Shown here: in pieces, positions 1-33,888 of the stretch | Layout of the letters: the number at the start of each line of letters is the position of its first letter | Position numbering within the stretch: the stretch's first letter is position 1 | Assembly (NCBI GenBank): GCA_022840695.1 | Contig: JALHDC010000001.1 | Coordinates: 2,516-66,515 of the forward strand | Origin: a bacterium | GTDB lineage: Bacteria > Patescibacteriota > Dojkabacteria > SC72 | Direction: 5' to 3' | DNA length: 64,000 nt | Position numbers and translations under genes: made by a program | The notes under the pieces: generated by a model | What the model was told of the DNA's origin: nothing | Database searches by the model: none | What the model saw: only the letters and a program-made list of their open reading frames with translations

Positions 1-1924
1 GGTCTATGTTATGTTCTCTTAGGTTATCATTACATCCTTGGTCAAATGCTGTTAAGTACATTATTACGGATCCTCCTTCGTTTCCATTTATGGATACTCT
101 TGTATTATTCGTATTTATGTACGGGGTTGTATTGATATTTGATATCTTCCAGCTATTACTATCATTCATTAGGCCTATTTGGTCTTCTGGGGGGATGTTA
201 TCCAAGGTTATATCGCTGTAACCAACTAAGCTTATGGTGTCATTTATTAGGAAACCTTCTCTGTAGGCATTGATTACGGTATCAGTTATATTACTTGATG
301 TACCCTCTACATTCCAGTTAAGGTATAGTTCTTGGGGTCCCAGGACAACTTGGGACAGGTCAATCATGGTAGGGATTACAAGATCTATACCCCAGTTAAA
401 ATATCTTTGCATACGGCTTATATCCACTCTTCCGTCACTTAGTAGCATATATTGGTCAAGGGTTATACTTTTGAAGTTATACATTCCTTCTAGGTTATCT
501 GTGAGGTTGGGGATTAGTTCTAGGTTAAATTCGAAGGTTACTATTTGGCTTCCTTGGGTTATTTCTATATCAGAGACTCGGGCTATATTATTTCCGCTAC
601 TATTTTTTAATGTTTTATCTGATATTACTGCCCATGTATTATTACTGTTAATTCCATACACAAGTGGGGGATTATTCCAGGAGTTATTATCTTGGAGAAT
701 CATTATTCCCAGTTCATCTGTACTGCTTGAGGTGTAGTTACTTACTATGTTTGGAAGTTGTGGAGTATTATTTGATTTACTAAACCACACTACAGTTCCT
801 TTTATTTCGTTATTACCATCAATATCCTTGGATCCCACCCTTATTTTAAGGGGGTTGTTTACCTGGGTTCCTGTATATTCTTCTGTTTTGCATCCTTTAG
901 GGGAGGTTGAGTCTTCTTCCCCTACTTCTGGAAGGAATTCCTCCTTAGTACACTGTTGGTCAGGGAGCATTAAGCAGGGCTCTTCAGGATCTCCGGTATT
1001 TGGGTCTATACAGTTAGGGTCAGTAGCAAGGAGTGAGGGGTCCCAATCGCACACATCTATATCTACAATTGGTAAATTGTCTACCTTGTAGTAGGTTTCC
1101 AAAGGAAGGGAATATTCTTTGTTTGTATTACAGAGATTTTCTGTGTAATACATTCCACTTACTTGTCCTTTAGCATTTTCTTTGAGTACTTGGGGTATGG
1201 TTAAGGAGGTTGGAGTAAAGTTTTGGGTATTATTTATTGATTCAACACAGTAGTCTTCTCCTCTAGAGCAATCAAAGGGAAGCCATTCATTGTCTATTCC
1301 GTAGTTATTGGCTCTAAAGGCATATCCCAGTCCATTTGAGGTTGGAGGGGTTGGTCTTGTTGGTATGGATGTTTGTACATTGTTTGCGGGTGAGGGATAT
1401 TTTACTGTGGTTGGGGTTGAGGAATTTAATGACAAAGAATAATTCTCACCATCCACTATCATGTTTAATGAGGTCGGAATTGATTGAGCTACATTACTCT
1501 CTGTTTTATAGCATGTAGTTCTTTGTGTGCATGTATTATTACAACCGTTTAGATATGTACAGCTTACTTCCTGAGTATCTGTACTACACAAATTATTTGG
1601 GTTAGTTGTTGTATATCCTGCTGGACAGGATGGTGCAGTACAAGATCCACTACAAGAATTATTACATGGAGGGGGAGGGCAAGGACAAGAGTAATCATCA
1701 CAACCAGAAGTTGCTTTTTCACAGACATATTCTCTGTAAAGAAACCTTCCCATTTCATCACGAACGGTTCTCCAATAACAATAATCACAACTATACATAC
1801 CTCCACTGTGTCCACAAGAATACCACCGACAACAACATTGAGCAGACACAAATTGTCTGGAAGAAACAAACAACAATATTACAAAAAATAATATTGTTAA
1901 AAATATTTTAATTAACTTCTTCAT
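1..1924 (-). CDS. Large secreted Cys/Pro-rich surface protein; start at 1924, 3' end beyond the window start. At least 641 codons in window; absent from the ORF track because there is no in-window stop.
   Basis: Manual minus-strand translation gives an uninterrupted frame from ATG at 1924-1922 to position 1. N-terminus MKKLIKIFLTILFFVILLFVSSRQFVSAQ is signal-peptide-like. It is followed by a Cys-rich block (CCCRWYSCGH...CPCPPPPCNNSCSGSCTAPSCPAGY), then a Thr/Asn/Ser-rich region. The plus-strand track ORFs 270..737, 747..1091, 1336..1518 are antisense shadows. Confidence 0.6.
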   Translation of the reverse strand, partial: MKKLIKIFLTILFFVILLFVSSRQFVSAQCCCRWYSCGHSGGMYSCDYCYWRTVRDEMGRFLYREYVCEKATSGCDDYSCPCPPPPCNNSCSGSCTAPSCPAGYTTTNPNNLCSTDTQEVSCTYLNGCNNTCTQRTTCYKTESNVAQSIPTSLNMIVDGENYSLSLNSSTPTTVKYPSPANNVQTSIPTRPTPPTSNGLGYAFRANNYGIDNEWLPFDCSRGEDYCVESINNTQNFTPTSLTIPQVLKENAKGQVSGMYYTENLCNTNKEYSLPLETYYKVDNLPIVDIDVCDWDPSLLATDPNCIDPNTGDPEEPCLMLPDQQCTKEEFLPEVGEEDSTSPKGCKTEEYTGTQVNNPLKIRVGSKDIDGNNEIKGTVVWFSKSNNTPQLPNIVSNYTSSSTDELGIMILQDNNSWNNPPLVYGINSNNTWAVISDKTLKNSSGNNIARVSDIEITQGSQIVTFEFNLELIPNLTDNLEGMYNFKSITLDQYMLLSDGRVDISRMQRYFNWGIDLVIPTMIDLSQVVLGPQELYLNWNVEGTSSNITDTVINAYREGFLINDTISLVGYSDITLDNIPPEDQIGLMNDSNSWKISNINTTPYINTNNTRVSINGNEGGSVIMYLTAFDQGCNDNLREHNID

Positions 1925-3449
1925 AATTTTCTAATAATATCTTTAATAACCTCGCATTTGTCCTTATGTTATAATAGTTATCATTTTCCCATATACCTTT
2001 CTTATTATCATCATTATACAAATTAACATATACAGATTTGAAAACCCTTGAAAGAAAAAGGTCTCTTAGCTCCATATCCTCCTGATAGGCCTCAATACAT
2101 AAAAATGAAGCATAAGAACTTGTATCCAATAAAGATAATGTCTTATTTATATCCTCCAAGAACATCAATTTTATATTATTTAATATTTCTAAAAAGAAAG
2201 GGTCGTCACTGTATTGAGAGGCTACTTTTGAGGCATAAGCCAAACTACACACATCTCTCACCCCTATCTCTCCTCTATATATATATTCGTATATCAAAGA
2301 ATCTTTAGCCATTTCTAAAGCGAAGGTCTCAAAAGATCCAATTCCCATATCTTTTACAATAAGAATATCTGGAAGAAAATTTATACTATTCTCCAATGGT
2401 AACATCTCTTCTGTGACCTCATAATTGCTCTTCTCAACAATTCTACTCAAACTTAAACTTTGTAATAAATCCTCCTCCCTAACAAAGACCTCTTGTTTTT
2501 TATTTTGTAAATTTTCTATATCCTTTTTAATTCCGTTAATATTGCAAAATTCCTTAGATAGAAGATTAAAAAATCTTCTATCTCCAATATTATTATCTAT
2601 TTCCTTAATCATATTACAACCAAAAGAGCTATTTTGAATGTGCGATATTTCCTCATTAACAGTTATAAAATCTTTCGATTCACATTCTTTATCATCACAG
2701 GATCCTCCTTCGGAAGTAGCTTCCATTTCTCTTCTATCTTCCCTGTTTTTTAGGAAATTCGCAGTCATAGATTCAAAATTAGCTATAGAGGAGACATCAA
2801 AAAAATTCGAATTTTCTTTCCCAGCATTTTTAAATAAATATGAGTCGATCCAAAGTTGATAGAGGGTTAAGTTATAAAAACCATCTGTATTATGATAAAA
2901 AGTTTCTGTATCTCCACTTTCAGACTTAATATCATATACTTCCGTAGTCACAGATTCTAAATTATCTTTTTCAAGTTTATTAAAATTCTTAATACTATCA
3001 TACAAAATTCCTTGACTATCAAGATATATTTCTTCTCCTAGCTTTAGATCTTCCAATTTAAACGTTATGAGACTATCTTCACTCAAGTTGACTGTTAAGA
3101 GAATGTTTCTTGGGATAGACCCTAAGTCCTGAATGTCCTTATCCGCGGACCAATCAAGATTTAATGAAATATCTTTATAATACAAACTCTCTCCCTTCTC
3201 TGTATCCCAGGCATTTAAATCAAATATAAAATTACTACCCTCTTCCCTTATGTTATACATTATACCCCTTACCTTGTATTCCTTCTCCCCACACTTATTC
3301 TCTACTACAAACCTCTCTAGAAATTCATACCCCCTTGGCAATATTCCGCACCTATACATGAAGAAATACCAATATCCTAGTCCTAAAATACATAATACAA
3401 AAAGGATACTTAATATCGTTAACTTCTTATTTTGGGCAGACCTATTCAT
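1908..3449 (-). CDS. Membrane-anchored acidic protein, paralog B (513 aa), unknown function
   Basis: N-terminus MNRSAQNKKLTILSILFVLCILGLGYWYFF (signal anchor) is nearly identical to the upstream paralog; the C-terminal domain is diverged. No recognisable catalytic motif. Confidence 0.6.
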   Translation of the reverse strand: MNRSAQNKKLTILSILFVLCILGLGYWYFFMYRCGILPRGYEFLERFVVENKCGEKEYKVRGIMYNIREEGSNFIFDLNAWDTEKGESLYYKDISLNLDWSADKDIQDLGSIPRNILLTVNLSEDSLITFKLEDLKLGEEIYLDSQGILYDSIKNFNKLEKDNLESVTTEVYDIKSESGDTETFYHNTDGFYNLTLYQLWIDSYLFKNAGKENSNFFDVSSIANFESMTANFLKNREDRREMEATSEGGSCDDKECESKDFITVNEEISHIQNSSFGCNMIKEIDNNIGDRRFFNLLSKEFCNINGIKKDIENLQNKKQEVFVREEDLLQSLSLSRIVEKSNYEVTEEMLPLENSINFLPDILIVKDMGIGSFETFALEMAKDSLIYEYIYRGEIGVRDVCSLAYASKVASQYSDDPFFLEILNNIKLMFLEDINKTLSLLDTSSYASFLCIEAYQEDMELRDLFLSRVFKSVYVNLYNDDNKKGIWENDNYYNIRTNARLLKILLENYEEVN

Positions 3450-3451
3450 TT

Positions 3452-4669
3452 CTACTCTGTAATTATAGATAATATAACAATTGCAACAGAATCATTAAAT
3501 ACTGATCTCCACGTATCAAATTCTCTTTTTACAAAAGGGAAAAAATTATTTAAATTATATTCCTCATACGAGGAACACATATTAGACAAGAAACAAAATT
3601 TTGCATTATAATCATTGTATGTATAGTTGCTTATCCTTACCTCGGATCCTTCAAGATTAAGATTCCTCCTTATCCCATTTAACCAGAATACTGTTTCTTC
3701 ATTAATATTATGAAAATTATACAAATAATTAATACTAGCTCCATACAATCTCAAATACTTATCAGAACTCATAGAACTACAATATTTAATATCATCCGCA
3801 AACAATCTTAAACTATCATTATATTCAGGAGGTAAAGAACCCTCTAAATAAAGAGATCCTATTAAATTACTCATATCTCCATCATTAACAATATTGTTTG
3901 TTCCATCCGGAGATTCTAAAATAGAAGTATATTCCAAACCTAATTCCTTAGCCGCATAACAAGGAAGATATGAATTCTCTAGACTGAAATATTCCATATT
4001 CTCATCTATGAAATTTTGAATCTCTTCCCTTTGTCCTTCACTCAACCAATCTTCTTCTAAAAGTTTTTTAGCTGCTAGAAGCTCTAACACATCCCTCTTA
4101 TACTGAACATTTTCATCTGTACCTTCTAATTCAGAGGTTTCCTCCTCTCCCTCTAACAACATCTCAGAATTTTCAAGACCTTTTCCCCCAAAACCATTCC
4201 TAATGATTTCAAAAATTCTAAAGAGATATTCATTCCTTTTCTCATCCATTAAAATTTTATTGCCTGATATGTTTATAATATCTGAGACATCTCTACTAAA
4301 CTCAACATCATAGTTATATCCAATCTCAAAAATATCTCCAATATAGTTACAAATTGATATCTCTTTTTCTAGGTTGTCAGATATATTCATATTGTAGACA
4401 ATGGCATCTACCAGAACGCACTCATTACTATCTTTAGGTTGTACATCTTTAATATATATATTTACATTAAAAGATCTCTCTGTAATCTTTTTACTTTCCT
4501 TTGTCTTGTATTCATACAACTCATTGTAATCACCCCAATCATTACTAACAATGGATATTGATATACCATCCTTCTTTACAAAGAAATACCAATATCCTAG
4601 TCCTAAAATACATAATACAAAAAGGATACTTAAAACTATCAACACCTTATTTTGGGCAGACCTATTCAT
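3452..4669 (-). CDS. Membrane-anchored acidic protein, paralog A (405 aa), unknown function
   Basis: N-terminus MNRSAQNKVLIVLSILFVLCILGLGYWYFF. The 5' ~90 nt of this gene (4579..4670) is ~90% identical to 3361..3450 of paralog B. Confidence 0.6.
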   Translation of the reverse strand: MNRSAQNKVLIVLSILFVLCILGLGYWYFFVKKDGISISIVSNDWGDYNELYEYKTKESKKITERSFNVNIYIKDVQPKDSNECVLVDAIVYNMNISDNLEKEISICNYIGDIFEIGYNYDVEFSRDVSDIINISGNKILMDEKRNEYLFRIFEIIRNGFGGKGLENSEMLLEGEEETSELEGTDENVQYKRDVLELLAAKKLLEEDWLSEGQREEIQNFIDENMEYFSLENSYLPCYAAKELGLEYTSILESPDGTNNIVNDGDMSNLIGSLYLEGSLPPEYNDSLRLFADDIKYCSSMSSDKYLRLYGASINYLYNFHNINEETVFWLNGIRRNLNLEGSEVRISNYTYNDYNAKFCFLSNMCSSYEEYNLNNFFPFVKREFDTWRSVFNDSVAIVILSIITE

Positions 4670-4688
4670 TAGATATATACTAGGTTAT

Positions 4689-6524
4689 TTATTTACTCTT
4701 TTCAACCTTTTTCTGCTTCTCATACATACTCTCTAATTCTTTTACAGAAGTAGCCTCTGTAATACCCTTATCTCTACCCCATTCTATTAACCTTGGAAAC
4801 CTTAAAGAAAGACTCCTCTTCCCCTTCTTCATACTTATCTCATCAGCCTCTACCGTAAAAACAATCCTAGGTTCTACCCAAACATCTGGTATTAAACTCT
4901 TCTCTACCTCAACATTATTCGGTTTCTTCTTTACAATATCCCCCTCAAAAGACTTAAAGGTATTCTTCAATTGATCATCACTAAAACCAGTACCAACATT
5001 ACATATTGCTTCAAATGTATTATTATCCTCGTTATACAAAGCTCCTAGTATAGCTCCAACACCCAAACTACTCCTTCTACCAGAACCAAAACTATATCCT
5101 ACTGCAACCAAATCTATACTATCAACCAACTTACTTTCCATTGATTTTTTCAACTTAATCCACTCATAATTCCTAACCCCTGGTAAATATGTACCAATTT
5201 TTTGCTTAACTATGACCCCCTCATGACCCTTTGCTACAGTTCTATTAAAAACCTCATACAACTCCTCTACACTCTTAACCTCCACTGTTTTATCCTTATC
5301 AATAGCACCACCAACACTCAAGGTATTCAATATCTCAACCCTTTCCTCGGTATCTTTCTCGGATATATCAACACTATCCAAATACAAAATATCAAAAGCC
5401 ATAGCCTTAACAGGTATACTCTCTCTCATATTTTTTACATCATACTTTCTTCTCCTTTGCATAGTTTCTTGAAATGTGAGGAATTTCTCAATCTTTGAAT
5501 TCCACCCTAAAACCTCGGAATCAAGAATAAAGGAATCTCTATCTATAGCCATAGCACTTTCTACTACCTCTGGAAACATTTCGGTCACATCTTCAAGGTT
5601 CCTTGTAAAAAGCTTCACTTCATACTTGTTTTCTACACTACTAAAAAGAGAGCTATTATCCTCACTCTCTAAATATTTCAACCATACAGACTCCTTGTGC
5701 CTTAACTCTCCCTTTTCATACTTATGAATCTGGCATCTTAAACCGTCATACTTACTCTGTACAAGAACAGAATCTCCCAACCTTTCGAACACCTCTTCAA
5801 AGGTAGCTACCCTTTCAACTAATCTAGACAAAACAGGAACTCCAGGCTCTATCCTAACACCCTTCAAATTCTTCTCAACCTCTTCTTTTGTATTTTCTAC
5901 TACTAACGAACATATATATCCAATATCTGCATATGCCCCATATGCCCTATCCAACTCTTCCCTTATACCTTTGTCTCCCTGTACTACAAAAGAAAAGACG
6001 TCTAAAAGGGTCTTTGAATTAACTCCAAACCTTAAAGACCCGCAAACTATCCTAGCAAAATATTTAGCTTCTAATGGAGATAGTTTTTTTAATGTATCAG
6101 CAATTATTCCATTCTTTTTCTCTACAGAACCTGTACCATATGTCTTAACTATTTTCCAAAGTATTTCATATATTTCTTCTAAAAAAAGCCCTCCTGACTT
6201 GTATTTTAATTCTTTAACAAAATATTCCAATGTGTCTCCAATATCTCCCAATTCATTCCTTTTCTTCCCAATATTCTCTTTTCTTCCCCCTACTTTCAAA
6301 ATATCTCCTAACAAAGAAACAAAACTTTTTTCAGAATAGTTAAATTCTTTATTTACAAAAAAAGGCACAACCCTTCCAAGTATTAAGTAGGAAAGAATTT
6401 GAGAATCCTCCTTGTTCAGATCTTTGTAAAAGGAAGATAAAATACTAGTCATCTCATTTCGAGAGGCTGTACTCTCTAAATTATTGAAGATTTCACATAC
6501 ACGACTGAATGTTACGTTTTTCAT
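4689..6524 (-). CDS. lig: ATP-dependent DNA ligase (three-domain Lig1/archaeal LigB type)
   Basis: Adenylation motif I SKYDGLRCQIHK (KxDGxR), motif IV EGVIVK, motif V WIKLKK, and a long N-terminal DNA-binding-domain-like region; 611 aa. Confidence 0.9.
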   Translation of the reverse strand: MKNVTFSRVCEIFNNLESTASRNEMTSILSSFYKDLNKEDSQILSYLILGRVVPFFVNKEFNYSEKSFVSLLGDILKVGGRKENIGKKRNELGDIGDTLEYFVKELKYKSGGLFLEEIYEILWKIVKTYGTGSVEKKNGIIADTLKKLSPLEAKYFARIVCGSLRFGVNSKTLLDVFSFVVQGDKGIREELDRAYGAYADIGYICSLVVENTKEEVEKNLKGVRIEPGVPVLSRLVERVATFEEVFERLGDSVLVQSKYDGLRCQIHKYEKGELRHKESVWLKYLESEDNSSLFSSVENKYEVKLFTRNLEDVTEMFPEVVESAMAIDRDSFILDSEVLGWNSKIEKFLTFQETMQRRRKYDVKNMRESIPVKAMAFDILYLDSVDISEKDTEERVEILNTLSVGGAIDKDKTVEVKSVEELYEVFNRTVAKGHEGVIVKQKIGTYLPGVRNYEWIKLKKSMESKLVDSIDLVAVGYSFGSGRRSSLGVGAILGALYNEDNNTFEAICNVGTGFSDDQLKNTFKSFEGDIVKKKPNNVEVEKSLIPDVWVEPRIVFTVEADEISMKKGKRSLSLRFPRLIEWGRDKGITEATSVKELESMYEKQKKVEKSK

Positions 6525-6525
6525 A

Positions 6526-6924
6526 CTAAGAAGGAGTATAGATATATGAGGTAGATTTTGTTAACCCCTCTTGAGACACTATCCCTTTAGCAACTAACAC
6601 ATCCATATCTCGTCTAATTGTCCTTGTTGAAACATTTGGAATTAGGCTATATATCTCACTTGGATCCATTCTACCCTCTTGTCTAATTCTTTCTAAAATT
6701 TTCATCTGCCTTTCATTAAGGCTTAAATCCAATGAAATTTTATTGGACGATATTTTTACTCTACCCTCTTCCTCATTTTCATCAAGAAATACATGATCAG
6801 TTTCTTTACTCTTCTTCTGTTTTAAAAATATAATCAAAAAAAGGGTTAAACCAAAAGTCAGAAGAGTTATTAAATTGAACAGAAAGGAGCTGCTATTTTC
6901 TTCAGAGGTTTTCATAACATACAT
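6526..6924 (-). CDS. Membrane-anchored winged-helix (DeoR-like HTH) transcriptional regulator
   Basis: N-terminal TM segment (FLFNLITLLTFGLTLFLIIFL) plus a C-terminal HTH-like segment (PSEIYSLIPNVSTRTIRRDMDVLVAKGIV). Confidence 0.5.
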   Translation of the reverse strand: MYVMKTSEENSSSFLFNLITLLTFGLTLFLIIFLKQKKSKETDHVFLDENEEEGRVKISSNKISLDLSLNERQMKILERIRQEGRMDPSEIYSLIPNVSTRTIRRDMDVLVAKGIVSQEGLTKSTSYIYTPS

Positions 6925-6995: not shown

Positions 6996-9668
6996 CTATT
7001 TCAATTCGGACATGTTATCGCCAACTGAAGCGTGGACTAGTAAAGGAACTTCAAAAGAAATAGCTTCTTCCATAATCTTTTGAGAAATCTCTACGAAGTC
7101 GTCCATCCTATTCTCCTTAACCTCAAATACTAATTCATCATGTATTTGAAGAAGAATATATGCTTCATCTTTAAAGTTTTTTTGTATTTCTTCATCTAAT
7201 TTAATCATTGCCAATTTCATAATATCTGCTTCACTTCCCTGTATAGGCATATTAACAGCTTCCCTTTGAGCTGCCTTCATCATCCTTATATTCTTAGACC
7301 TAAGTCCCCTAATATTCCTTGTAGTTCCAAACATACTCTGAACATATCCTCTCTTGTAAGCCTCCTTCTCTAGATTTCTAATATATTCTTCTACTCCTTT
7401 GTAGTGACCAAAATAGCTTTGAATGTATTCGGATGCCAAACTACTATCTATACCTAGCATACTGGCTAAACCGTAAGCTGTTTGCCCAAAAAGAATTCCA
7501 AAATTTACTGTTTTACCAATACTTCTCTCCTGCTTAGTAACATCTTCCATCTCTTTGTTTAACAACCTTGACGCTGTCGCTTTATGTATATCCAAATTAT
7601 CCCTAAAGTCCGCTATTAACAGATCATCCTTAGATATATCAGCCATTATTCTTAACTCCATTTGAGAATAGTCCATAGCTACTAGTTTAAATCCTTTCCT
7701 AGCAACAAACGATTTTCTTAATTTCTCAGCCCATTCTCCCTGTAAAGGAAGATTTTGCATATTTGGATTAACAGAGGAAAACCTTCCAGATGTCGTTCCT
7801 GTTTGTTTAAAATCTGTATGTATGGAGTGTTCTTCATTCTCTTTTGCCATTTCTAAAAGAGGAATGGTATATGTGGTATACACCTTGTTTAACTCTCTGT
7901 ATTCAAGTATCTTTGCAACACAGGGATGTGCATCTTTCAGTTCACTTAAGACCGATTCTTTTGTAGATGCCTTTTTGTTAGACGGGAGACCAAGTTCTTT
8001 GAAAAGTATATCTGAAAGCTGTTTTGGTGAATTAATATTAAATTCATGTCCCACAGTATCGTATATTTCTTTTGAGATGCTACTTATACTCTTAGATAGC
8101 TCCTCATTTATCTTTTCTAAATGTTGTATATCGACTGCTATTCCCCTACTTTCCATTCCATAGAGAATCATTGCAATTGGAATCTCTATCTTTCTTAATA
8201 CATTTAAAAAATAATCCTCTTTTACCCCAAGAAATGATTCTATACTACCCCTTGTGTAGTCATATAGCTCAATTTGATTTGCCTTTTCAATTTGACAGGC
8301 TTTTATTTCCTCTACAGTATCTAGCACTTTTCCTAATTCATTAGGAAAGATTTTTTCTCCCAATGTTTGATTAGAGTAGTCAAATGCTAGATCTTTTAGG
8401 GTATACTTACTTCTTTCGGAATTGATTAAATGGGCAAGAAGTCCGATATCGTATGAATTCTCTATTGAAATTTCTTTGAATTGTGAAACTGTGTCTTCTA
8501 GGTAATAAAATGTGGTTTCACAAACCAAAGGCTCTGTGCAACTGAAATTTTTAACTAAATAATCCCCTTTTTCACCCTTCTTGTCCACAATTCTAATCAT
8601 AAAGTAAGAGTCTCCGGTTGCGGACTCAGAGCTACTAATATAGACAACTGTTACCTTCGAGGCGCTAGTAATCATTTTATTAACATCCACATTTTCACTC
8701 CACACTATATTTTCAGTATCTGTAGAGAAAATATCTAACTGATTTGAAGTAACAACCTTTTCGTCCTCCTTTACATCATCTAACCTACTTATTAGCGATT
8801 TAAAAGAATACTTCTTAAATATTTCAACAACCCTTGCTTTATCAAAATCTTTTAACAAAGCCTCTTCTAAACGGACGTCTACGCCAACCTCCTGCTCTAT
8901 CTTAGCCAATTTTCTACTTAATTCAGCCTGCTCTACCCCCTCTAGGAGTAAATTGGCATACCTTGGCTTAATATCCTTTAAATTCTTGTATATACCATCC
9001 ATATCACCGTATTTTTTAAGCAAATCTAGTGCCGTTTTACTACCTACACCCTTGATTCCTGGAATATTATCCGAGGAGTCCCCTGCAATTCCCTTGTAAT
9101 CAACTAATTGTTCAGGATACAGACCTAAGTACTTAAATGTCCCTTCCCTATCATATGCTACCAAATCTTTAAAACTACCAGCTGGAAGGCACACCTTAAT
9201 ATTCTCATCCACTAATTGCAAAAGGTCCCTATCCCCACTAAGGATATATAGTTCTAGGTTTTCATTACTCCATTTACTGCTTCTTACATACTTAGCAATC
9301 GTACCTAATACATCGTCTCCTTCGAATCCATCCTTTTTAACAATTGGTATATTGAAAGCCTTGATAATCTCTTCTACCAATGGAAACTGATCTATCAAAG
9401 ATTGATCTGTAGGTTTTCGTGTTGCTTTGTAATCAACATACTCTAAATGCCTAAACGTTGGCTTATGAGTATCGAATGCACACAACACATATTTAGGATC
9501 AAATGTCTTCAAGGCAGAAAGTAACATAACTGTAAAACCGTATACAGCATTAACCTGAAGGCCGTCCTCCGTTTGTAAAGTTGGTGGATATGCATGAAAT
9601 GCCCTATGAATTATTGCATTAGCATCTATTGCTAGGAATCTATCCTTGTGTGTTTTAACTAAGTTCAT
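6996..9668 (-). CDS. polA: DNA polymerase I
   Basis: N-terminal 5'-3' exonuclease (FLAIDANAIIHRAFHAY...GIPGIKGVGSKTA). Polymerase motifs A (DYSQMELRIMA), B (RSIGKTVNFGILFGQTAYGL) and C (QIHDELVFEV); 890 aa. Confidence 0.93.
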   Translation of the reverse strand: MNLVKTHKDRFLAIDANAIIHRAFHAYPPTLQTEDGLQVNAVYGFTVMLLSALKTFDPKYVLCAFDTHKPTFRHLEYVDYKATRKPTDQSLIDQFPLVEEIIKAFNIPIVKKDGFEGDDVLGTIAKYVRSSKWSNENLELYILSGDRDLLQLVDENIKVCLPAGSFKDLVAYDREGTFKYLGLYPEQLVDYKGIAGDSSDNIPGIKGVGSKTALDLLKKYGDMDGIYKNLKDIKPRYANLLLEGVEQAELSRKLAKIEQEVGVDVRLEEALLKDFDKARVVEIFKKYSFKSLISRLDDVKEDEKVVTSNQLDIFSTDTENIVWSENVDVNKMITSASKVTVVYISSSESATGDSYFMIRIVDKKGEKGDYLVKNFSCTEPLVCETTFYYLEDTVSQFKEISIENSYDIGLLAHLINSERSKYTLKDLAFDYSNQTLGEKIFPNELGKVLDTVEEIKACQIEKANQIELYDYTRGSIESFLGVKEDYFLNVLRKIEIPIAMILYGMESRGIAVDIQHLEKINEELSKSISSISKEIYDTVGHEFNINSPKQLSDILFKELGLPSNKKASTKESVLSELKDAHPCVAKILEYRELNKVYTTYTIPLLEMAKENEEHSIHTDFKQTGTTSGRFSSVNPNMQNLPLQGEWAEKLRKSFVARKGFKLVAMDYSQMELRIMADISKDDLLIADFRDNLDIHKATASRLLNKEMEDVTKQERSIGKTVNFGILFGQTAYGLASMLGIDSSLASEYIQSYFGHYKGVEEYIRNLEKEAYKRGYVQSMFGTTRNIRGLRSKNIRMMKAAQREAVNMPIQGSEADIMKLAMIKLDEEIQKNFKDEAYILLQIHDELVFEVKENRMDDFVEISQKIMEEAISFEVPLLVHASVGDNMSELK

Positions 9669-9683
9669 ATTTCAATTCTACAT

Positions 9684-11558
9684 CTACTTAAACAATGTCT
9701 CAAACTCATCTCCAGTCACAACTTCTTTCTCAAGAAGGATATCTACTAATTTTTTAACATATTCCTTCTTTTCATTTAACAAATTTTTTGCATCTACATA
9801 TGCCTCGTCAATTAATCTTTTAACCTCAAAATCTATCATTCTTGCAGTATCTTCACTATATTCTTTCCCTCCACCATATGAATATCCCAAATGCTTTGTT
9901 TCTTCTAAATCCCCGTACTTAACCATACCTAACTTCTCACTCATTCCGTAATCCATTATCATTTCTCTAGCAATATTAGTGATTTGTTGAATATCGTTAG
10001 AAGCACCTGTAGATATATCTCCTAGGAAAATCTCCTCAGCTACCCTACCACCAATCCCCGTTCTTAACCAAGCCAACATTTGCTTTCTGTAAAGGAACTT
10101 TCTATCTTTCTCTGGTAAATATACGGTAACTCCACCACTTGCACCCCTGGATATTACAGATATCTGTTCAACAGGATCCGCTCCAGCGGTAAATTTTGCA
10201 ACTATTGCATGCCCTGCCTCATGATATGCTGTTTTTTCAATATCCTCTAATTCTTTGTCACCCTTTTTCTTCCTTCCTAATTTAACCTTAAGGTATGATT
10301 CCATTAGGTCTTCTTGAGATATTTTCTTCCTTCCCTCTTTCACTGCCATTATTGCAGCCTCATTTAAAAGATTCTCTAAATCTGCACCCGAATATCCGAC
10401 TGTTTTCTTAGCTAAAGTATTTAAATCTGCACTCTCTTCAAATTTCTTGTTCCTTGCATGAACATCCAGTATGGCTCTCCTACCGGTAAAATCAGGCATT
10501 GGAACAACCACAGTTCTATCAAATCTTCCTGGTCTTAAAATTGCTGGATCCAAAACATCCGGTCTATTTGTAGCAGCAAGAATTATGACGTTTTCTCTCT
10601 CTTCTAAACCATCCATCTCTACCAAGATCTGATTCAATGTTTGCTCTCCAGCTCCTGAATGGAGTACTGTTCCTCTCTTCTTAGCGACTGCATCTATTTC
10701 ATCTATGAAAACTATACATGGAGATGTTCTTCTTGCTTTTTTGAAAAGATCTCTAACCCTAGAAGCACCTGCACCAACAAGCATTTCTTCAAATTCTGAA
10801 CCAGAAGTATGGAAAAATGGAACTCCTGCTTCACCAGCTACTGCCTTAGCTAAAAGAGTCTTACCAGTTCCTGGATCTCCCGCTAAAAGTACACCTCTTG
10901 GTATTCTGGCTCCCATATCTCTATATTTTTTTGGACTTTTAAGAAAATCTATTATCTCCGTTAACTCTTCTTTTACTTCCTCTATTCCTGCAACATCATC
11001 AAATGTTATCCCAGTTCTCTTTCCCATTAACAACCTGGCCTTACTCTCTCCAAAATCCAGAATTTTACCTCCAGAAGCTTGCATGTTCTTTACCATAACA
11101 TACACTAAGATTAAGGCGGCACCTAGAAATATGAATGTAAGGACATCTCCAAATGTAATACCTAATTTAGGCTCGTAAAAATCATTTTCCAAATCCTTAA
11201 CATTTATTTCAGCATTTGTAAGGACTTGATAGAAATCGGTATCTGATGGTAACAGAGCATACCTTCTAGACAAAACCTCTACCCCATCAACTTCTTTCTT
11301 GTTCTCCAAAAGCACCATATCATCTTTCAAAATGATTTTCTCATATTTTTTCTCTGAAATTTCGGTTACTATCTGACTCACAGAGACCTCTTCCCCTTTG
11401 TAATTGATTACCTTGATTAAATATATTCCTGCAGTTAAAAGTACAGAGAGGATTACAGTAGCAACCAAACTTGGTACTCCCATCTTCCTTTTAGGAATAC
11501 TTCTTATATCTATCTTAACAACTTTGCTCTCAGCATTATCTTTTTTAGATTTATCCAT
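9684..11558 (-). CDS. ftsH: ATP-dependent zinc metalloprotease FtsH
   Basis: N-terminal TM, AAA Walker A GDPGTGKTLLAKAVAGEAGVPF, second region of homology, HEXXH zinc motif HEAGHAIVA; 624 aa. Confidence 0.95.
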   Translation of the reverse strand: MDKSKKDNAESKVVKIDIRSIPKRKMGVPSLVATVILSVLLTAGIYLIKVINYKGEEVSVSQIVTEISEKKYEKIILKDDMVLLENKKEVDGVEVLSRRYALLPSDTDFYQVLTNAEINVKDLENDFYEPKLGITFGDVLTFIFLGAALILVYVMVKNMQASGGKILDFGESKARLLMGKRTGITFDDVAGIEEVKEELTEIIDFLKSPKKYRDMGARIPRGVLLAGDPGTGKTLLAKAVAGEAGVPFFHTSGSEFEEMLVGAGASRVRDLFKKARRTSPCIVFIDEIDAVAKKRGTVLHSGAGEQTLNQILVEMDGLEERENVIILAATNRPDVLDPAILRPGRFDRTVVVPMPDFTGRRAILDVHARNKKFEESADLNTLAKKTVGYSGADLENLLNEAAIMAVKEGRKKISQEDLMESYLKVKLGRKKKGDKELEDIEKTAYHEAGHAIVAKFTAGADPVEQISVISRGASGGVTVYLPEKDRKFLYRKQMLAWLRTGIGGRVAEEIFLGDISTGASNDIQQITNIAREMIMDYGMSEKLGMVKYGDLEETKHLGYSYGGGKEYSEDTARMIDFEVKRLIDEAYVDAKNLLNEKKEYVKKLVDILLEKEVVTGDEFETLFK

Positions 11559-11587
11559 CTTGAGGAAACATAATTTAATATTTTTAA

Positions 11588-11661
11588 TAGTGGGAACTGG
11601 GATCGAACCAGTGACCTTGGGTTTATGAATCCCATGCTCTAACCAACTGAGCTATCCCACC
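11588..11661 (-). tRNA. tRNA-Met (anticodon CAT); elongator-like, Ile2/lysidine type not excluded
   Basis: Revcomp folds as a cloverleaf: acceptor GGTGGGA/TCCCACT (G1-U72), D arm GCTC-AGTTGGTTA-GAGC, anticodon loop TTCATAA, T arm ACTGG-TTCGATC-CCAGT. No encoded CCA. Confidence 0.75.
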
Positions 11662-11704
11662 AGAGATTCTTCCTATTATATCAAAGGAGATGGTAAAAAT
11701 ATAT

Positions 11705-12332: not shown

Positions 12333-12407
12333 TGGTTGCGGGGGTCGGACTCGAACCGACGACCTCCAGGTTATGAGCCTGACGAGCTTCCACTGCTCTA
12401 CCCCGCG
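12333..12407 (-). tRNA. Initiator tRNA-fMet (CAT), CCA encoded
   Basis: Revcomp CGCGGGGTAGAGCAGTGGAAGCTCGTCAGGCTCATAACCTGGAGGTCGTCGGTTCGAGTCCGACCCCCGCAACCA. C1xA72 mismatch, anticodon loop CTCATAA and strong similarity to the bacterial initiator consensus. Confidence 0.8.
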
Positions 12408-13912: not shown

Positions 13913-14009
13913 TTGATAAATATCCGATAGAATATTAAATTTCTTTGTAAATTTCGCTATAGTCATTGGTATACTAACATTTCTCAACTCACTAAAGGTC
14001 TGGAGGGTG

Positions 14010-14083
14010 TGGGAATAGGTGGACTCGAACCACCGACCACGGCTTTATAAGAACCGCGCTCTAACCACCTGAGCTATATTCCC
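14010..14083 (-). tRNA. tRNA-Ile (anticodon TAT/UAU)
   Basis: Revcomp GGGAATATAGCTCAGGTGGTTAGAGCGCGGTTCTTATAAAGCCGTGGTCGGTGGTTCGAGTCCACCTATTCCCA. Anticodon stem CGGTT/AGCCG, loop CTTATAA. No encoded CCA. Confidence 0.65.
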
Positions 14084-30109: not shown

Positions 30110-31009
30110 TTAATTCAAAGTAATACTACTCATCACTTCATCTAAAAGTGGTAAAACCTCCTCATCAGGATTTCCTATGATCTTTACACCATAACTACTC
30201 CCTGTTTCTGTTCCCATACCACTATCATACTCAAACGAAAGAGTATCGAATGATAAGACACCTGCAGACAATCCACATAATGGATGGAATTCATCAACAT
30301 TCGCATTATCCAAATCATTCCAATATAGGCTAGATTCAACTCTTCTCCCTCTAAAATCTATGAAAGAAAATTCTGTATAATCTCCATCCGCAATTACGGT
30401 AACTGTAGGCATAGCCTCATCAGGATCACTACTAAGATTATAATCTGTAGTTAAGCCATTAATCACATCTATATATGACTGAGGAGTATCCGAGAATCTT
30501 CCAACAGAAGAACAAATATCAATACCTCCTATACCCATTACAGCATATACTTGAAGAACTTCCTCATCCTCATCTGTCAGAATAGAAAGACCTGTTAAAC
30601 CTTGATACTCAGCATCCATTAACATATCTGTTCCGTCTCCATCCACATACTCTACAATACTCCACCCTTCAGGAAGTTGAGCAGTTATGTAATCTCCCAC
30701 GAAATCAGAAGAAAGAGCAACAGCATCTTCCTCTTTTTCATCTTGATCCTCCTCTTCCCCATCAGGATCTGGAGTATCAGAACTGGAACCTTCTTCACCT
30801 GCAGGTTCATAATTAGCAAAATAGTAGCCTGCATATGCAGCTGCACCCAAAAGCAACATTACTCCCAATACTATTAAAACTGTTTTTAGTCCTTTTCCCT
30901 TTGGTTTACTCGCAGTAGCAACAGTAGGTGTAGCTACACCCTCTTTAGGAGCCTCTGTCTTCACAGCATTCTCCATCGAAGGTGCTCCTTGATTTAAATC
31001 TGATTCCAT
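30110..31009 (-). CDS. Membrane-anchored acidic protein, family with conserved EGWSIxEYxDGDGTDMLMD motif (paralog 1)
   Basis: TM LKTVLIVLGVMLLLGAAAYAGYYF, then a D/E-rich linker and the block LPEGWSIVEYVDGDGTDMLMDAEYQGLTGL, shared with 32628..33458. Confidence 0.55.
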   Translation of the reverse strand: MESDLNQGAPSMENAVKTEAPKEGVATPTVATASKPKGKGLKTVLIVLGVMLLLGAAAYAGYYFANYEPAGEEGSSSDTPDPDGEEEDQDEKEEDAVALSSDFVGDYITAQLPEGWSIVEYVDGDGTDMLMDAEYQGLTGLSILTDEDEEVLQVYAVMGIGGIDICSSVGRFSDTPQSYIDVINGLTTDYNLSSDPDEAMPTVTVIADGDYTEFSFIDFRGRRVESSLYWNDLDNANVDEFHPLCGLSAGVLSFDTLSFEYDSGMGTETGSSYGVKIIGNPDEEVLPLLDEVMSSITLN

Positions 31010-32627: not shown

Positions 32628-33458
32628 ATGGAAGTAGAACAGAATATTGATACAACTATTCAAAAGGACGATGGTGTTAATACAAAAAATCCTTCTGATG
32701 GGAATAAGGATATCTGGGTTATTCTTTTAAATGTGTTTCTTGCCTTGGTAACAATCCTCCTCCTTGGATATGTAGCATATAGGAATGGATATATTGATTT
32801 AGATAATGTATTTAAACCTAAAGAACAAACAGAGGAAGAATCAAATGAGGAGAATGATGCTTCCAATGATTTAGTTATACAGGAGAATGGGGAAACAACA
32901 TTAAATACATACGAGGGAGAAGTTCTCTCTGCAATACTTCCTAGTGGTTGGAGCATAACGGAGTATATGGATGGAGATGGAACAGATATGTTAATGGATA
33001 CTGTTGAATATACTGGTTTGACAGGCCTCACTGTATCATACAATAATGTACCAATACTTGAATTAATAGCTGTTTCAGGTATCGGTTTCATTGGATGTCC
33101 TGAATTACCTATATTTACAGATAGTAGTGAAGCCTACCTACAGGAACAGGTAGAGATGAATGAAGAAATCCAGGAAAATATGGTTACTTATGATTATACC
33201 AATACCCCATATTCTGATTTTCAATGGTTTGGAAAAGATTTTAGGAGGGTTGGAACAACACTATACTTTGATACAGTAGCAGGTAATGAATATTTTGAAC
33301 CACAGTGTGAGGGAGGCTTAGTGACTGTACCAGGACTTAGATTTGAGGATTCGGATGGATATGAGGGAGTAGCATATTTCTATAATATAAACGAAGAAGC
33401 ATCTGCAGAACAATTGGAAACATTAGATAATATATTGGCTAGTATGATGGAGATATAG
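32628..33458 (+). CDS. Membrane-anchored acidic protein, EGWSIxEYxDGDGTDMLMD family (paralog 2)
   Basis: TM IWVILLNVFLALVTILLLGYVAY; LPSGWSITEYMDGDGTDMLMDTVEYTGLTGL, homologous to 30110..31009. Confidence 0.55.
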   Translation: MEVEQNIDTTIQKDDGVNTKNPSDGNKDIWVILLNVFLALVTILLLGYVAYRNGYIDLDNVFKPKEQTEEESNEENDASNDLVIQENGETTLNTYEGEVLSAILPSGWSITEYMDGDGTDMLMDTVEYTGLTGLTVSYNNVPILELIAVSGIGFIGCPELPIFTDSSEAYLQEQVEMNEEIQENMVTYDYTNTPYSDFQWFGKDFRRVGTTLYFDTVAGNEYFEPQCEGGLVTVPGLRFEDSDGYEGVAYFYNINEEASAEQLETLDNILASMMEI

Positions 33459-33468
33459 AATCTTTATC

Positions 33469-33888
33469 TGGTGGAGACGACGGGAATTGAACCCATGTCC
33501 AAAAGCATTGTTTAGCACCATGTACAAACATAGTTAACCTTGTATAGTAAGATATTTCTAGAAAGGTTAACAAAAAGAAATATCCCCTCGATTATGTTTC
33601 TAAGTTAGTTACCCTATCGATCAAATAACCAACCGTACCCTGATAACGACTATCTATAATCCCTCATCAGGGAAAAGGATAATAGACACTAACTAAAATA
33701 TTTAGTTAGACCTTATGCAAAGTTAAATGCATAAGCTGGAGCAGCAAAAGCAGCTCTTAACTTAGCAGTAAACTCATTAGCAAAGGCGACAATCTTATTT
33801 TCTACACTTAAGCTGTGTGTTGAATAACGACTCAACGAACGGTTTGTGATAACTAAACGCAAACTTCTGTCGAAAGCCTTACGTCCCC
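33469..33888 (-). ncRNA. ssrA: tmRNA (ssrA)
   Basis: 5' GGGGACGUAAGGCUUUCGAC (conserved UUCGAC). 3' tRNA-like end GGACAUGGGUUCAAUUCCCGUCGUCUCCACCA with CCA encoded. Acceptor pairing includes G3-U70 (Ala identity). Internal open frame ...AFANEFTAKLRAAFAAPAYAFNFA-UAA is a candidate tag. smpB is present at 17 kb. Confidence 0.8.

Follow-up and report, generated by a model that had tools for sequence, protein, structure and literature searches.

A near-identical signal-anchor block at the start of two divergent tandem genes, and its probable place in a recombination-prone locus beside the DNA ligase gene of a candidate Saccharibacteria genome

Two adjacent genes on the minus strand of an uncultured bacterial genome, here called A and B, begin with almost the same sequence and then have next to nothing in common. 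They lie in a 64-kb stretch of contig JALHDC010000001.1 (positions 2,516 to 66,515; the whole of this stretch, 64,000 nucleotides (nt), is referred to as the window), immediately after a gene for an ATP-dependent DNA ligase. An earlier note, made from the sequence alone, had put their resemblance down to local duplication or gene conversion and had suggested that the shared 5' end could mediate recombination. What, then, keeps so short a piece nearly identical, and what does it mean for the locus around it? The answer that we favor, with a probability of roughly 0.7, is that a conserved anchor block has been homogenised by gene conversion and forms the left arm of a recombination-prone surface locus. 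The organism is taken here as a member of Saccharibacteria (TM7), on the basis of the match of the block to one contig, L003: a search with the block pattern returned a single match in the genome_contigs set, on this 2.8-kb metagenome-assembled genome (MAG) contig labelled “uncultured Candidatus Saccharibacteria,” and no match in the metagenome_contigs set.

Translation confirms both open reading frames (ORFs) at the coordinates and on the strand originally reported, with the shared N-terminal start: the first residues are MNRSAQNKVLIVLSILFVLCILGLGYWYFF in A and MNRSAQNKKLTILSILFVLCILGLGYWYFF in B, and 26 of 30 are identical. The repeated block runs from 1 nt before each ATG to the end of codon 30, and its two copies, lying in the same orientation, are identical at 83 of 90 nt (92%) in an ungapped alignment, with a start-to-start distance of exactly 1220 nt. 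The DNA match of about 90% proposed earlier is therefore sound; the 2-nt indel proposed with it came from a miscount of coordinates, and the two further bases are mismatches. The block encodes a basic N-terminal tail (MNRSAQNK) and a transmembrane (TM) signal anchor. Beyond it the genes have diverged, as the earlier note stated: BLASTP aligns residues 1–36 only (81% identity, E = 1e-15) and finds no significant match past residue 36, and a forced global alignment places the bodies at background (19% identity). A conserved signal anchor thus precedes divergent ectodomains. The genes are tightly packed, with the start of B 2 nt past the stop of A and the ATG of the next gene, C (1924), overlapping the end of B by 17 nt. 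In a DNA repeat search the block is the sole long direct repeat of the window, and neither tblastn with the 36-aa (amino acid) N-terminus nor a motif scan revealed a third copy there, so that the search for additional 90-nt copies was negative within these 64 kb.

Conservation of the protein is not sufficient to explain this identity. Codons 14–29 are all identical in the two genes, for which the probability is ~10^-6.4 under independent codon choice, given the shared amino acids and the codon usage of the window; the identity of the block is thus a property of the DNA and not of the protein alone. To resolve it further, the first 120 nt of all block copies were aligned and the differences were counted per segment. 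Genes A and B differ at 0/24 positions in nt 1–24, 7/16 in nt 25–40, 0/49 in nt 41–89, and 20/31 in nt 90–120. At nt 25–40, A is 4 differences from its orthologue in the distant relative L001 (L001_A) and 8–9 from B genes, and B is 1–2 from the B genes of other strains. At nt 90–120 each window copy resembles its own family, A being like L001_A and B like the B genes of other strains. At nt 41–89, the two window copies differ from close-strain B genes at 5–8 positions and from L001_A at 16. Such B-type sequence inside A-type flanks is what a short conversion tract copied from B to A leaves behind. The last 300 nt of the ligase gene show 30–34 differences from the close strains (~10%), and the 49-nt segment of the block shows 5–8 (10–16%). 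This segment therefore drifts between strains at about the local rate, indicating that the block is under no special nucleotide constraint and that the homogenisation of A and B is younger than the split of the strains. We infer that nt 41–89 of A is a short gene-conversion tract, copied from B after the split from the sister strains. Block and body also disagree in kinship: the A block is nearest to that of B (82/90 in this comparison) and not to that of its orthologue in L001 (67/90), and although the body of B is nearest to L004 (45% aa identity), the block of L004 is the least similar of all (55/90). Gene conversion, one of the two origins first proposed, is the source of nucleotide identity that fits this mosaic best.

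Comparison with related loci, performed by blastn of the window against them, connects the block to the architecture of the region. Four close strains (L003, L005, L006, and L007) have ligase genes with 91.5–96.5% nt identity to that of the window and ligase proteins with 96.5–98.5% aa identity (96.5% for L003); DNA polymerase I (PolA) is 95.6% identical, and the small helix-turn-helix (HTH) protein encoded between the two 100% identical, at the aa level. These strains are collinear with the window at 90–95% nt identity from the PolA and ligase genes through the A block, where collinearity ends at 4578–4580. Homology resumes at window positions 3450..3169, comprising the B block and ~200 nt (78–82%), at the same subject coordinates. 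The window is thus the arrangement of the relatives plus 1,220 bp. The ends of this indel coincide exactly with the direct repeat, and the close strains read ligase-block-B. Unequal or Campbell-type recombination at the block would be expected to produce such a structure, as would the reverse process, deletion between the repeats. The idea that the block marks a recombination boundary is therefore upheld, the close strains being short of exactly one repeat unit, and the comparison of copy number among related loci shows synteny that differs, not the identical synteny of a simple ancient duplication.

A second discontinuity lies further downstream. From window position 3169 to ~1477, blastn detects no nucleotide homology to the close strains, and homology to L007 picks up again inside C at ~80%. 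The nearest relative of this replaced segment is again L004, which has the closest B body and the same cysteine (Cys) pattern in the head of C. The fall in conservation past the ligase stop is also seen in the proteins, with B 25–32% and C 54–73% identical (aa) to the close strains. A single 8.4-kb high-scoring segment pair (HSP) with 72% nt identity links the ligase gene and most of A to L001, and the A orthologue in L001 has diverged to about the same extent as the core genes on its flanks, implying that A is old and that the split between A and B is ancient.

The genes involved belong to a three-gene unit that recurs in the relatives, consisting of X (B or A), C (990–1325 aa), and D, a small membrane protein (329–354 aa, with an N-terminal TM helix). 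Gene B is located directly upstream of C in the window, L004, L005, L007, L009, and L010, and A occupies that position in L001. The order is ligase-B-C in L005, L006, and L007; in the distant L001 (ligase 69.5% aa) it is ligase-A-C, with A in the slot of B. Loci L002 and L008 carry C-D-B-C, that is, two units in tandem, and a 760-kb contig of a relative contains two X-C-D units, one after PolA-HTH-ligase and one after the gene for YchF (L009, L010). Further copies of the module thus do occur in relatives, as a second copy elsewhere in their genomes. The head of C (~145 aa, window ~1477–1924) exists in discrete types, being CCC(R/K)WYSC...PCPPPPCNNSC in the window and L004 and LCR..CRGNYC...CTPVPCKGC in L005 and L007. 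The type of the C head co-varies with the type of the B ectodomain, as if the two regions interacted. In L009 (11620–15483) and L010 (11602–15579), C contains inserted repeats of the form GDRTHV...YKMWYxGxDGSNWRIY, resembling a GH130/BNR-like beta-propeller (Pfam, E = 5e-14), and this insert is missing from the C of the window. Together with a weak toroid theme in the predicted structure of B, the propeller hints at glycan binding or processing as a predicted function. Neither the B family nor the X-C-D module is described in the libraries searched, and a literature search for a described hypervariable surface family of Saccharibacteria returned nothing specific.

A promoter-like element stands immediately upstream of A, with its -35 box inside the last codons of the ligase gene and no Shine-Dalgarno sequence between TAGTAT and the ATG of A. 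Matches of this quality (9/12) are common by chance in such AT-rich DNA (35 found against 25.5 expected). The same architecture (TTGAAA or TTGCAA, 17 nt, TAnnAT, 7–8 nt, ATG, without a Shine-Dalgarno sequence) also fronts family members at other loci, among them the L010 copy, which follows YchF and not ligase. The element is probably a promoter giving a leaderless mRNA. In L002 (1852–1890) and L008 (2073–2113), a copy of the ligase 3' end (GTTGAAAAGG...) together with the element stands in front of the B gene of the second locus, which is located after gene D and not after ligase, indicating that it arose by duplication of the ligase-adjacent gene with its promoter. In the window, B no longer adjoins the element, since A lies between them, and expression of B is predicted to depend on read-through and coupling from A.

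The protein families represented by A and B differ in size. Among 5.8 billion proteins, A has one homologue only (P0002, 60% identity), and a profile search with the A family added no new members. In the same collection, B (P0003) has five homologues (P0004–P0008) that align end to end at 26–45% identity, and a B-family profile, run against 1.84 billion cluster representatives, recovered 39 clusters at 50% identity (P0003–P0041), most of the matches being full-length (445–558 aa). This family has no public model and was defined here from our own alignments; it is apparently restricted to Saccharibacteria. In all 37 full-length members inspected, a basic tail at the N-terminus is followed by a long hydrophobic helix, in many cases with YWY as its last residues. 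The family is further characterised by the juxtamembrane motifs YEFLExF, KGIIYNI, and FDxNxWD, a variable middle, two invariant Cys residues, and a C-terminal motif GxW...YDxRxNARxLKLL. Gene B is a full-length member carrying YEFLExF, C..KEY.VKGIIYNI, FDxNxWD, Cys278/Cys302, and the C-terminal motif, and gene A convincingly shares the anchor only: against the B profile A matches only over residues 1–87, by way of P0002 (E = 1.6e-6), and not over its full length. The motifs YNELYEY and VYNMNISD of A are a faint echo of the juxtamembrane motifs of B. At most, A would be an ancient, very diverged relative of B, or an analogue able to fill the same slot.

Both proteins start with a basic tail and a hydrophobic anchor of ~22 residues ending in YWY(F/Y)F. 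The length of this h-region and the lack of an AXA site or lipobox point to an uncleaved signal anchor, and A and B are accordingly predicted to be single-pass, signal-anchored proteins exposed at the surface. A lipoprotein was rejected, as the sequence F-V-L-C-I has Leu at -1 and the relatives are similar (LVLC, FFLC, LSLC). A type IV pilin or pseudopilin was rejected as well, there being neither a Gly before the helix nor a Glu at +5 in MNRSAQNK-VLIVLSIL, and no Pfam N_methyl match. Searches of Pfam, NCBIfam, and PDB sequences were empty for A, B, C, and D. In the AlphaFold2 models of A and B the order of elements is the same (TM helix, short helix, beta domain, long helix, all-alpha C-terminal part). 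Foldseek found nothing in the PDB at E <= 1e-3 for the B model, and its weak matches are mostly (alpha/alpha)6 toroids, which serve as a lead only. One of three matches to related loci, L011 (~10001–10156), turned out to be a Ser/Thr kinase-TPR protein of a high-GC organism with the TM helix LIGLGYWYFF; this unrelated kinase was discarded as a chance pattern match, which indicates that the motif alone is not diagnostic.

The favored explanation can be set out as follows. The anchor would be conserved as a protein segment in both families, presumably for its function in the membrane, and the two block copies of this genome would also have been homogenised at the DNA level by at least one short conversion tract. 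Block, promoter-like element, and ligase gene would jointly act as the left homology arm in a region prone to recombination. Gene A would be gained or lost through recombination events at the blocks or between them, and exchanges with ends in the 5' 290 nt of B and in the body of C, both conserved, would replace the B ectodomain along with the C head. DNA taken up from outside could plausibly drive such changes through homologous recombination. Saccharibacteria are naturally competent and can be manipulated by natural transformation (PMC10633639), making the exchange of divergent alleles by homologous recombination plausible. A role of the locus in host interaction is proposed.

Several observations weigh against this explanation. 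Strain L005, the closest by its ligase, has no A; the gene may have been lost repeatedly in the sister strains or may have been imported here. The reference for A-type sequence is one distant orthologue only (L001_A, ~70% nt identity) and is hence weak, which makes the direction of conversion, with B-type sequence copied into A, tentative. In the relative with two modules on one contig the two blocks are only 71/90 identical, so homogenisation is not a general property of the family. The copy count given above covers the 64-kb window, and the arrangement itself comes from an assembled metagenome contig. Finally, the AlphaFold2 models are poor, with mean confidence scores (pLDDT) of 52.6 for B and 43.1 for A, so that surface location and any function are putative.

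Alternative explanations differ in how much of this evidence they can accommodate. Strong purifying selection on the block, acting at the protein or the nucleotide level (an initiation region, a small RNA target, or a structured RNA), would dispense with recombination altogether, and it is in keeping with the fact that conservation of the first 30 residues far exceeds that of the ectodomains in both families and across lineages, and that GGATATTGGTATTTCTT is unchanged in 8/10 aligned blocks, with one-base variants in L005/L006 and L004. However, selection on the protein leaves synonymous sites free, in conflict with the codon statistics, and the same 49 nt carry 5–8 mostly synonymous changes between close strains, which roughly equals the neutral rate of the neighborhood. 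A uniform constraint would also not be expected to yield segments that are by turns identical and family-specific, and a structured RNA or riboswitch was rejected because the block folds no better than its shuffles (z = -0.23 to 0.31) and has no Rfam match. Constraint alone is for these reasons rather improbable. Programmed variation, in which the block is a dedicated cassette site where a site-specific recombinase, or circles frequently recombining by the Campbell mechanism, bring about switching within a population, would account for an indel of exactly one repeat unit as the integration or excision of a circle of block and A body. The hypervariable ectodomains and the second-locus copies of L002 and L008, which carry the ligase 3' end and the promoter and hence show that the whole 5' module has moved, agree with it. 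It is highly doubtful nonetheless: no recombinase, integrase, or transposase gene adjoins the locus, either in the window or in the relatives, the region 1500–5000 of the window is free of suitable inverted repeats, simple-sequence tracts, and arrays of silent cassettes, the block lacks conserved dyad symmetry, and there are two copies only per genome or window.

The remaining alternatives concern the assembly and the age of the gene pair. Since the source is an uncultured MAG, both single-gene arrangements exist in nature (ligase-A-C in L001; ligase-B-C in L003, L005, and L007), and the block contains a 53-nt perfect repeat, the haplotypes ligase-block-A-C and ligase-block-B-C could have been joined through the shared block, or the repeat mis-resolved. 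But the junction of the A stop (TAG), AA, and the ATG of the next block is unique sequence that reads must contain, L001 joins A to C by a different junction, and the 7 differences between the block copies follow family lines. Moreover, the perfect run is shorter than commonly used final k-mers, the contig spans 239,603 bp, and both proteins are on record from two contigs. We therefore place still less weight on an artefact than on programmed variation. A recent tandem duplication followed by very fast divergence outside the anchor, one form of the local duplication named in the earlier note, is the least probable account. The genes are adjacent and in the same orientation, their predicted secondary-structure elements follow the same order, and profile-profile alignment (hhalign) gives a probability of 97.7% for A 1–159 against B 10–174. 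The hhalign score is, however, dominated by the anchor, that is, the first 30 residues, and the bodies are at 19% identity with nothing found by BLASTP past residue 36. The orthologue of A in L001, diverged like its core flanks, makes the A/B split ancient, so that a recent local duplication is unlikely, and an ancient event alone cannot yield 0/49 differences within the block.

Homogenisation by gene conversion at a recombination boundary, as favored here, has counterparts in well-studied bacteria. The babA, babB, and babC genes of Helicobacter pylori are paralogous surface genes with near-identical 5' segments, including the signal sequence, and divergent middles, and intragenomic gene conversion and locus-to-locus exchange among them vary by strain. 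The Bab proteins are outer-membrane beta-barrel adhesins that have conserved 3' ends as well and undergo phase variation via CT repeats. Genes A and B resemble them in the near-identical 5' ends, the divergent remainder, and gene conversion between copies; they differ in encoding predicted single-pass anchored proteins of a monoderm-like bacterium of the Candidate Phyla Radiation (CPR), in sharing only the first 90 nt, and in lacking a repeat-tract switch. In Mycoplasma, the vsp, vlp, and vsa systems comprise 5–30 lipoprotein genes switched by site-specific invertases or poly-A/TA tracts, with a conserved block of 5' untranslated region and signal peptide serving as a recombination substrate. 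The window likewise shows a conserved promoter-leader-signal block ahead of divergent domains, tandem genes, and a small-genome, host-dependent bacterium, whereas it has two copies, no lipobox (Leu before Cys), no invertase, and no tracts.

A parallel to the replaced segment may be drawn with the pneumococcal cps locus, at which surface-locus alleles are replaced via conserved flanks (dexB and aliA) in a transformable bacterium. In both cases identity falls from >90% to unalignable at the edge of a conserved flanking gene. In both, ancient and very divergent alleles are exchanged through the flanks in a naturally competent group (PMC10633639 for the group considered here). Unlike cps, the window has a cassette made up of portions of one or two protein genes (B body and C head) instead of a biosynthetic operon, and one homology arm is itself protein-coding, comprising the anchor and B up to residue 95. 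The likeness to variable surface-protein families noted earlier consequently holds as an analogy at the population level and fails as a switching system, with two copies and neither a switch nor silent cassettes. Of the properties of such families, intragenomic recombination between copies is indicated by the 0/49 tract in family-specific flanks and by the block/body incongruence, and high copy number is not seen (two copies in the 64-kb window, two modules in the 760-kb relative contig). Hypermutable tracts, suitable inverted repeats, and invertible elements were not found at window positions 1500–5000.

The coordinates of all features of the locus are collected in Table 1. On the minus strand the genes follow in the order FtsH, PolA, HTH_DeoR, ligase, A, B, C, with a spacer of 19 nt between ligase and A. 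The HTH protein, whose DeoR-like domain is C-terminal, is 100% identical in L005 and the window, though the neighboring DNA is 4–10% different.

Table 1. Features of the locus in the window and positions of the corresponding upstream architecture in related loci.
Feature	Position	Strand	Basis	Remarks
FtsH gene	9684-11558	-	Gene order	
DNA polymerase I (PolA) gene	6996-9668	-	Gene order	
Small HTH_DeoR protein	6526-6924	-	Between PolA and ligase	N-terminal TM helix
ATP-dependent DNA ligase	4689-6524	-	Pfam	Last gene before conservation falls
Promoter-like TTGAAA-17 nt-TAGTAT	4677..4705	-	9/12 match	Ends 7 nt before A ATG
1,220-bp unit	3451..4670	-	blastn	One block, A body, and 2-nt spacer; missing from L003, L005, L006, L007
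Block copy 1	4581..4670	-	Direct repeat and translation	1 nt plus codons 1-30 of gene A
53-nt perfect-identity run	4581..4633 (A), partner 3361-3413 (B)	-	Repeat comparison	
Gene A	3452..4669	-	ORF	405 aa; predicted single-pass (N-in) membrane protein
Block copy 2	3361..3450	-	Direct repeat	1 nt plus codons 1-30 of gene B
Gene B	1908..3449	-	ORF	513 aa; signal-anchored family member without public annotation
Replaced hypervariable segment	1477..3169	-	blastn HSP boundaries	B from ~residue 95 to end and ~145-aa Cys-rich head of C
Gene C, 5' part	1..1924	-		>641 aa, runs off window; large secreted Cys-rich protein; second module gene
Same upstream architecture, relatives	L002 1852-1890; L008 2073-2113; L009 9963-10003; L010 9963-10003			Spacer diverged

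Analysis of the rest of the window revealed several features outside the A/B locus. A tRNA-Ile gene with the anticodon TAT (UAU), uncommon in bacteria, is located at 14009–14083 (minus strand), near two tRNA-Met(CAT) genes (11587–11662 and 12333–12407). For the transfer-messenger RNA (tmRNA; 33469–33888, minus strand, 420 nt, 102 bits in Rfam), the predicted tag, VENKIVAFANEFTAKLRAAFAAPAYAFNFA, is unusually long and lacks the ALAA end that is usual for such tags. A 92-nt inverted repeat with 75% complementarity (30610–30701 and 32912–33003, arms 2.2 kb apart) has its arms in the oppositely oriented ORFs 30110–31009 (minus strand) and 32628–33458 (plus strand), which may be diverged inverted paralogues.

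A further possibility goes beyond gene conversion at a recombination boundary. Promoter, leaderless ATG, and anchor block could act together as a portable expression and docking module, on which ectodomain cassettes are captured, stacked one behind the other like A and B here, or removed by plain homologous recombination. We consider this unlikely. If true, the docking module would amount to a recombinase-free, integron-like change of the surface module (X ectodomain and C head), and it could set which host bacterium the epibiont attaches to.

Concerted evolution of a signal-anchor 5' end at a recombination boundary is a well-known phenomenon; the protein family in which it is seen here is uncharacterised. 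What makes the repeat useful is that it marks both a recombination breakpoint and a three-gene module not described before. Saccharibacteria are epibionts attached to host bacteria, and to our knowledge their host-range genes are largely unknown. The locus described here is a strain-hypervariable, lineage-restricted module beside conserved replication genes, with clear recombination boundaries, and this hypervariability, together with those boundaries, makes it a concrete and easily targeted candidate for determinants of host specificity or immune exposure.

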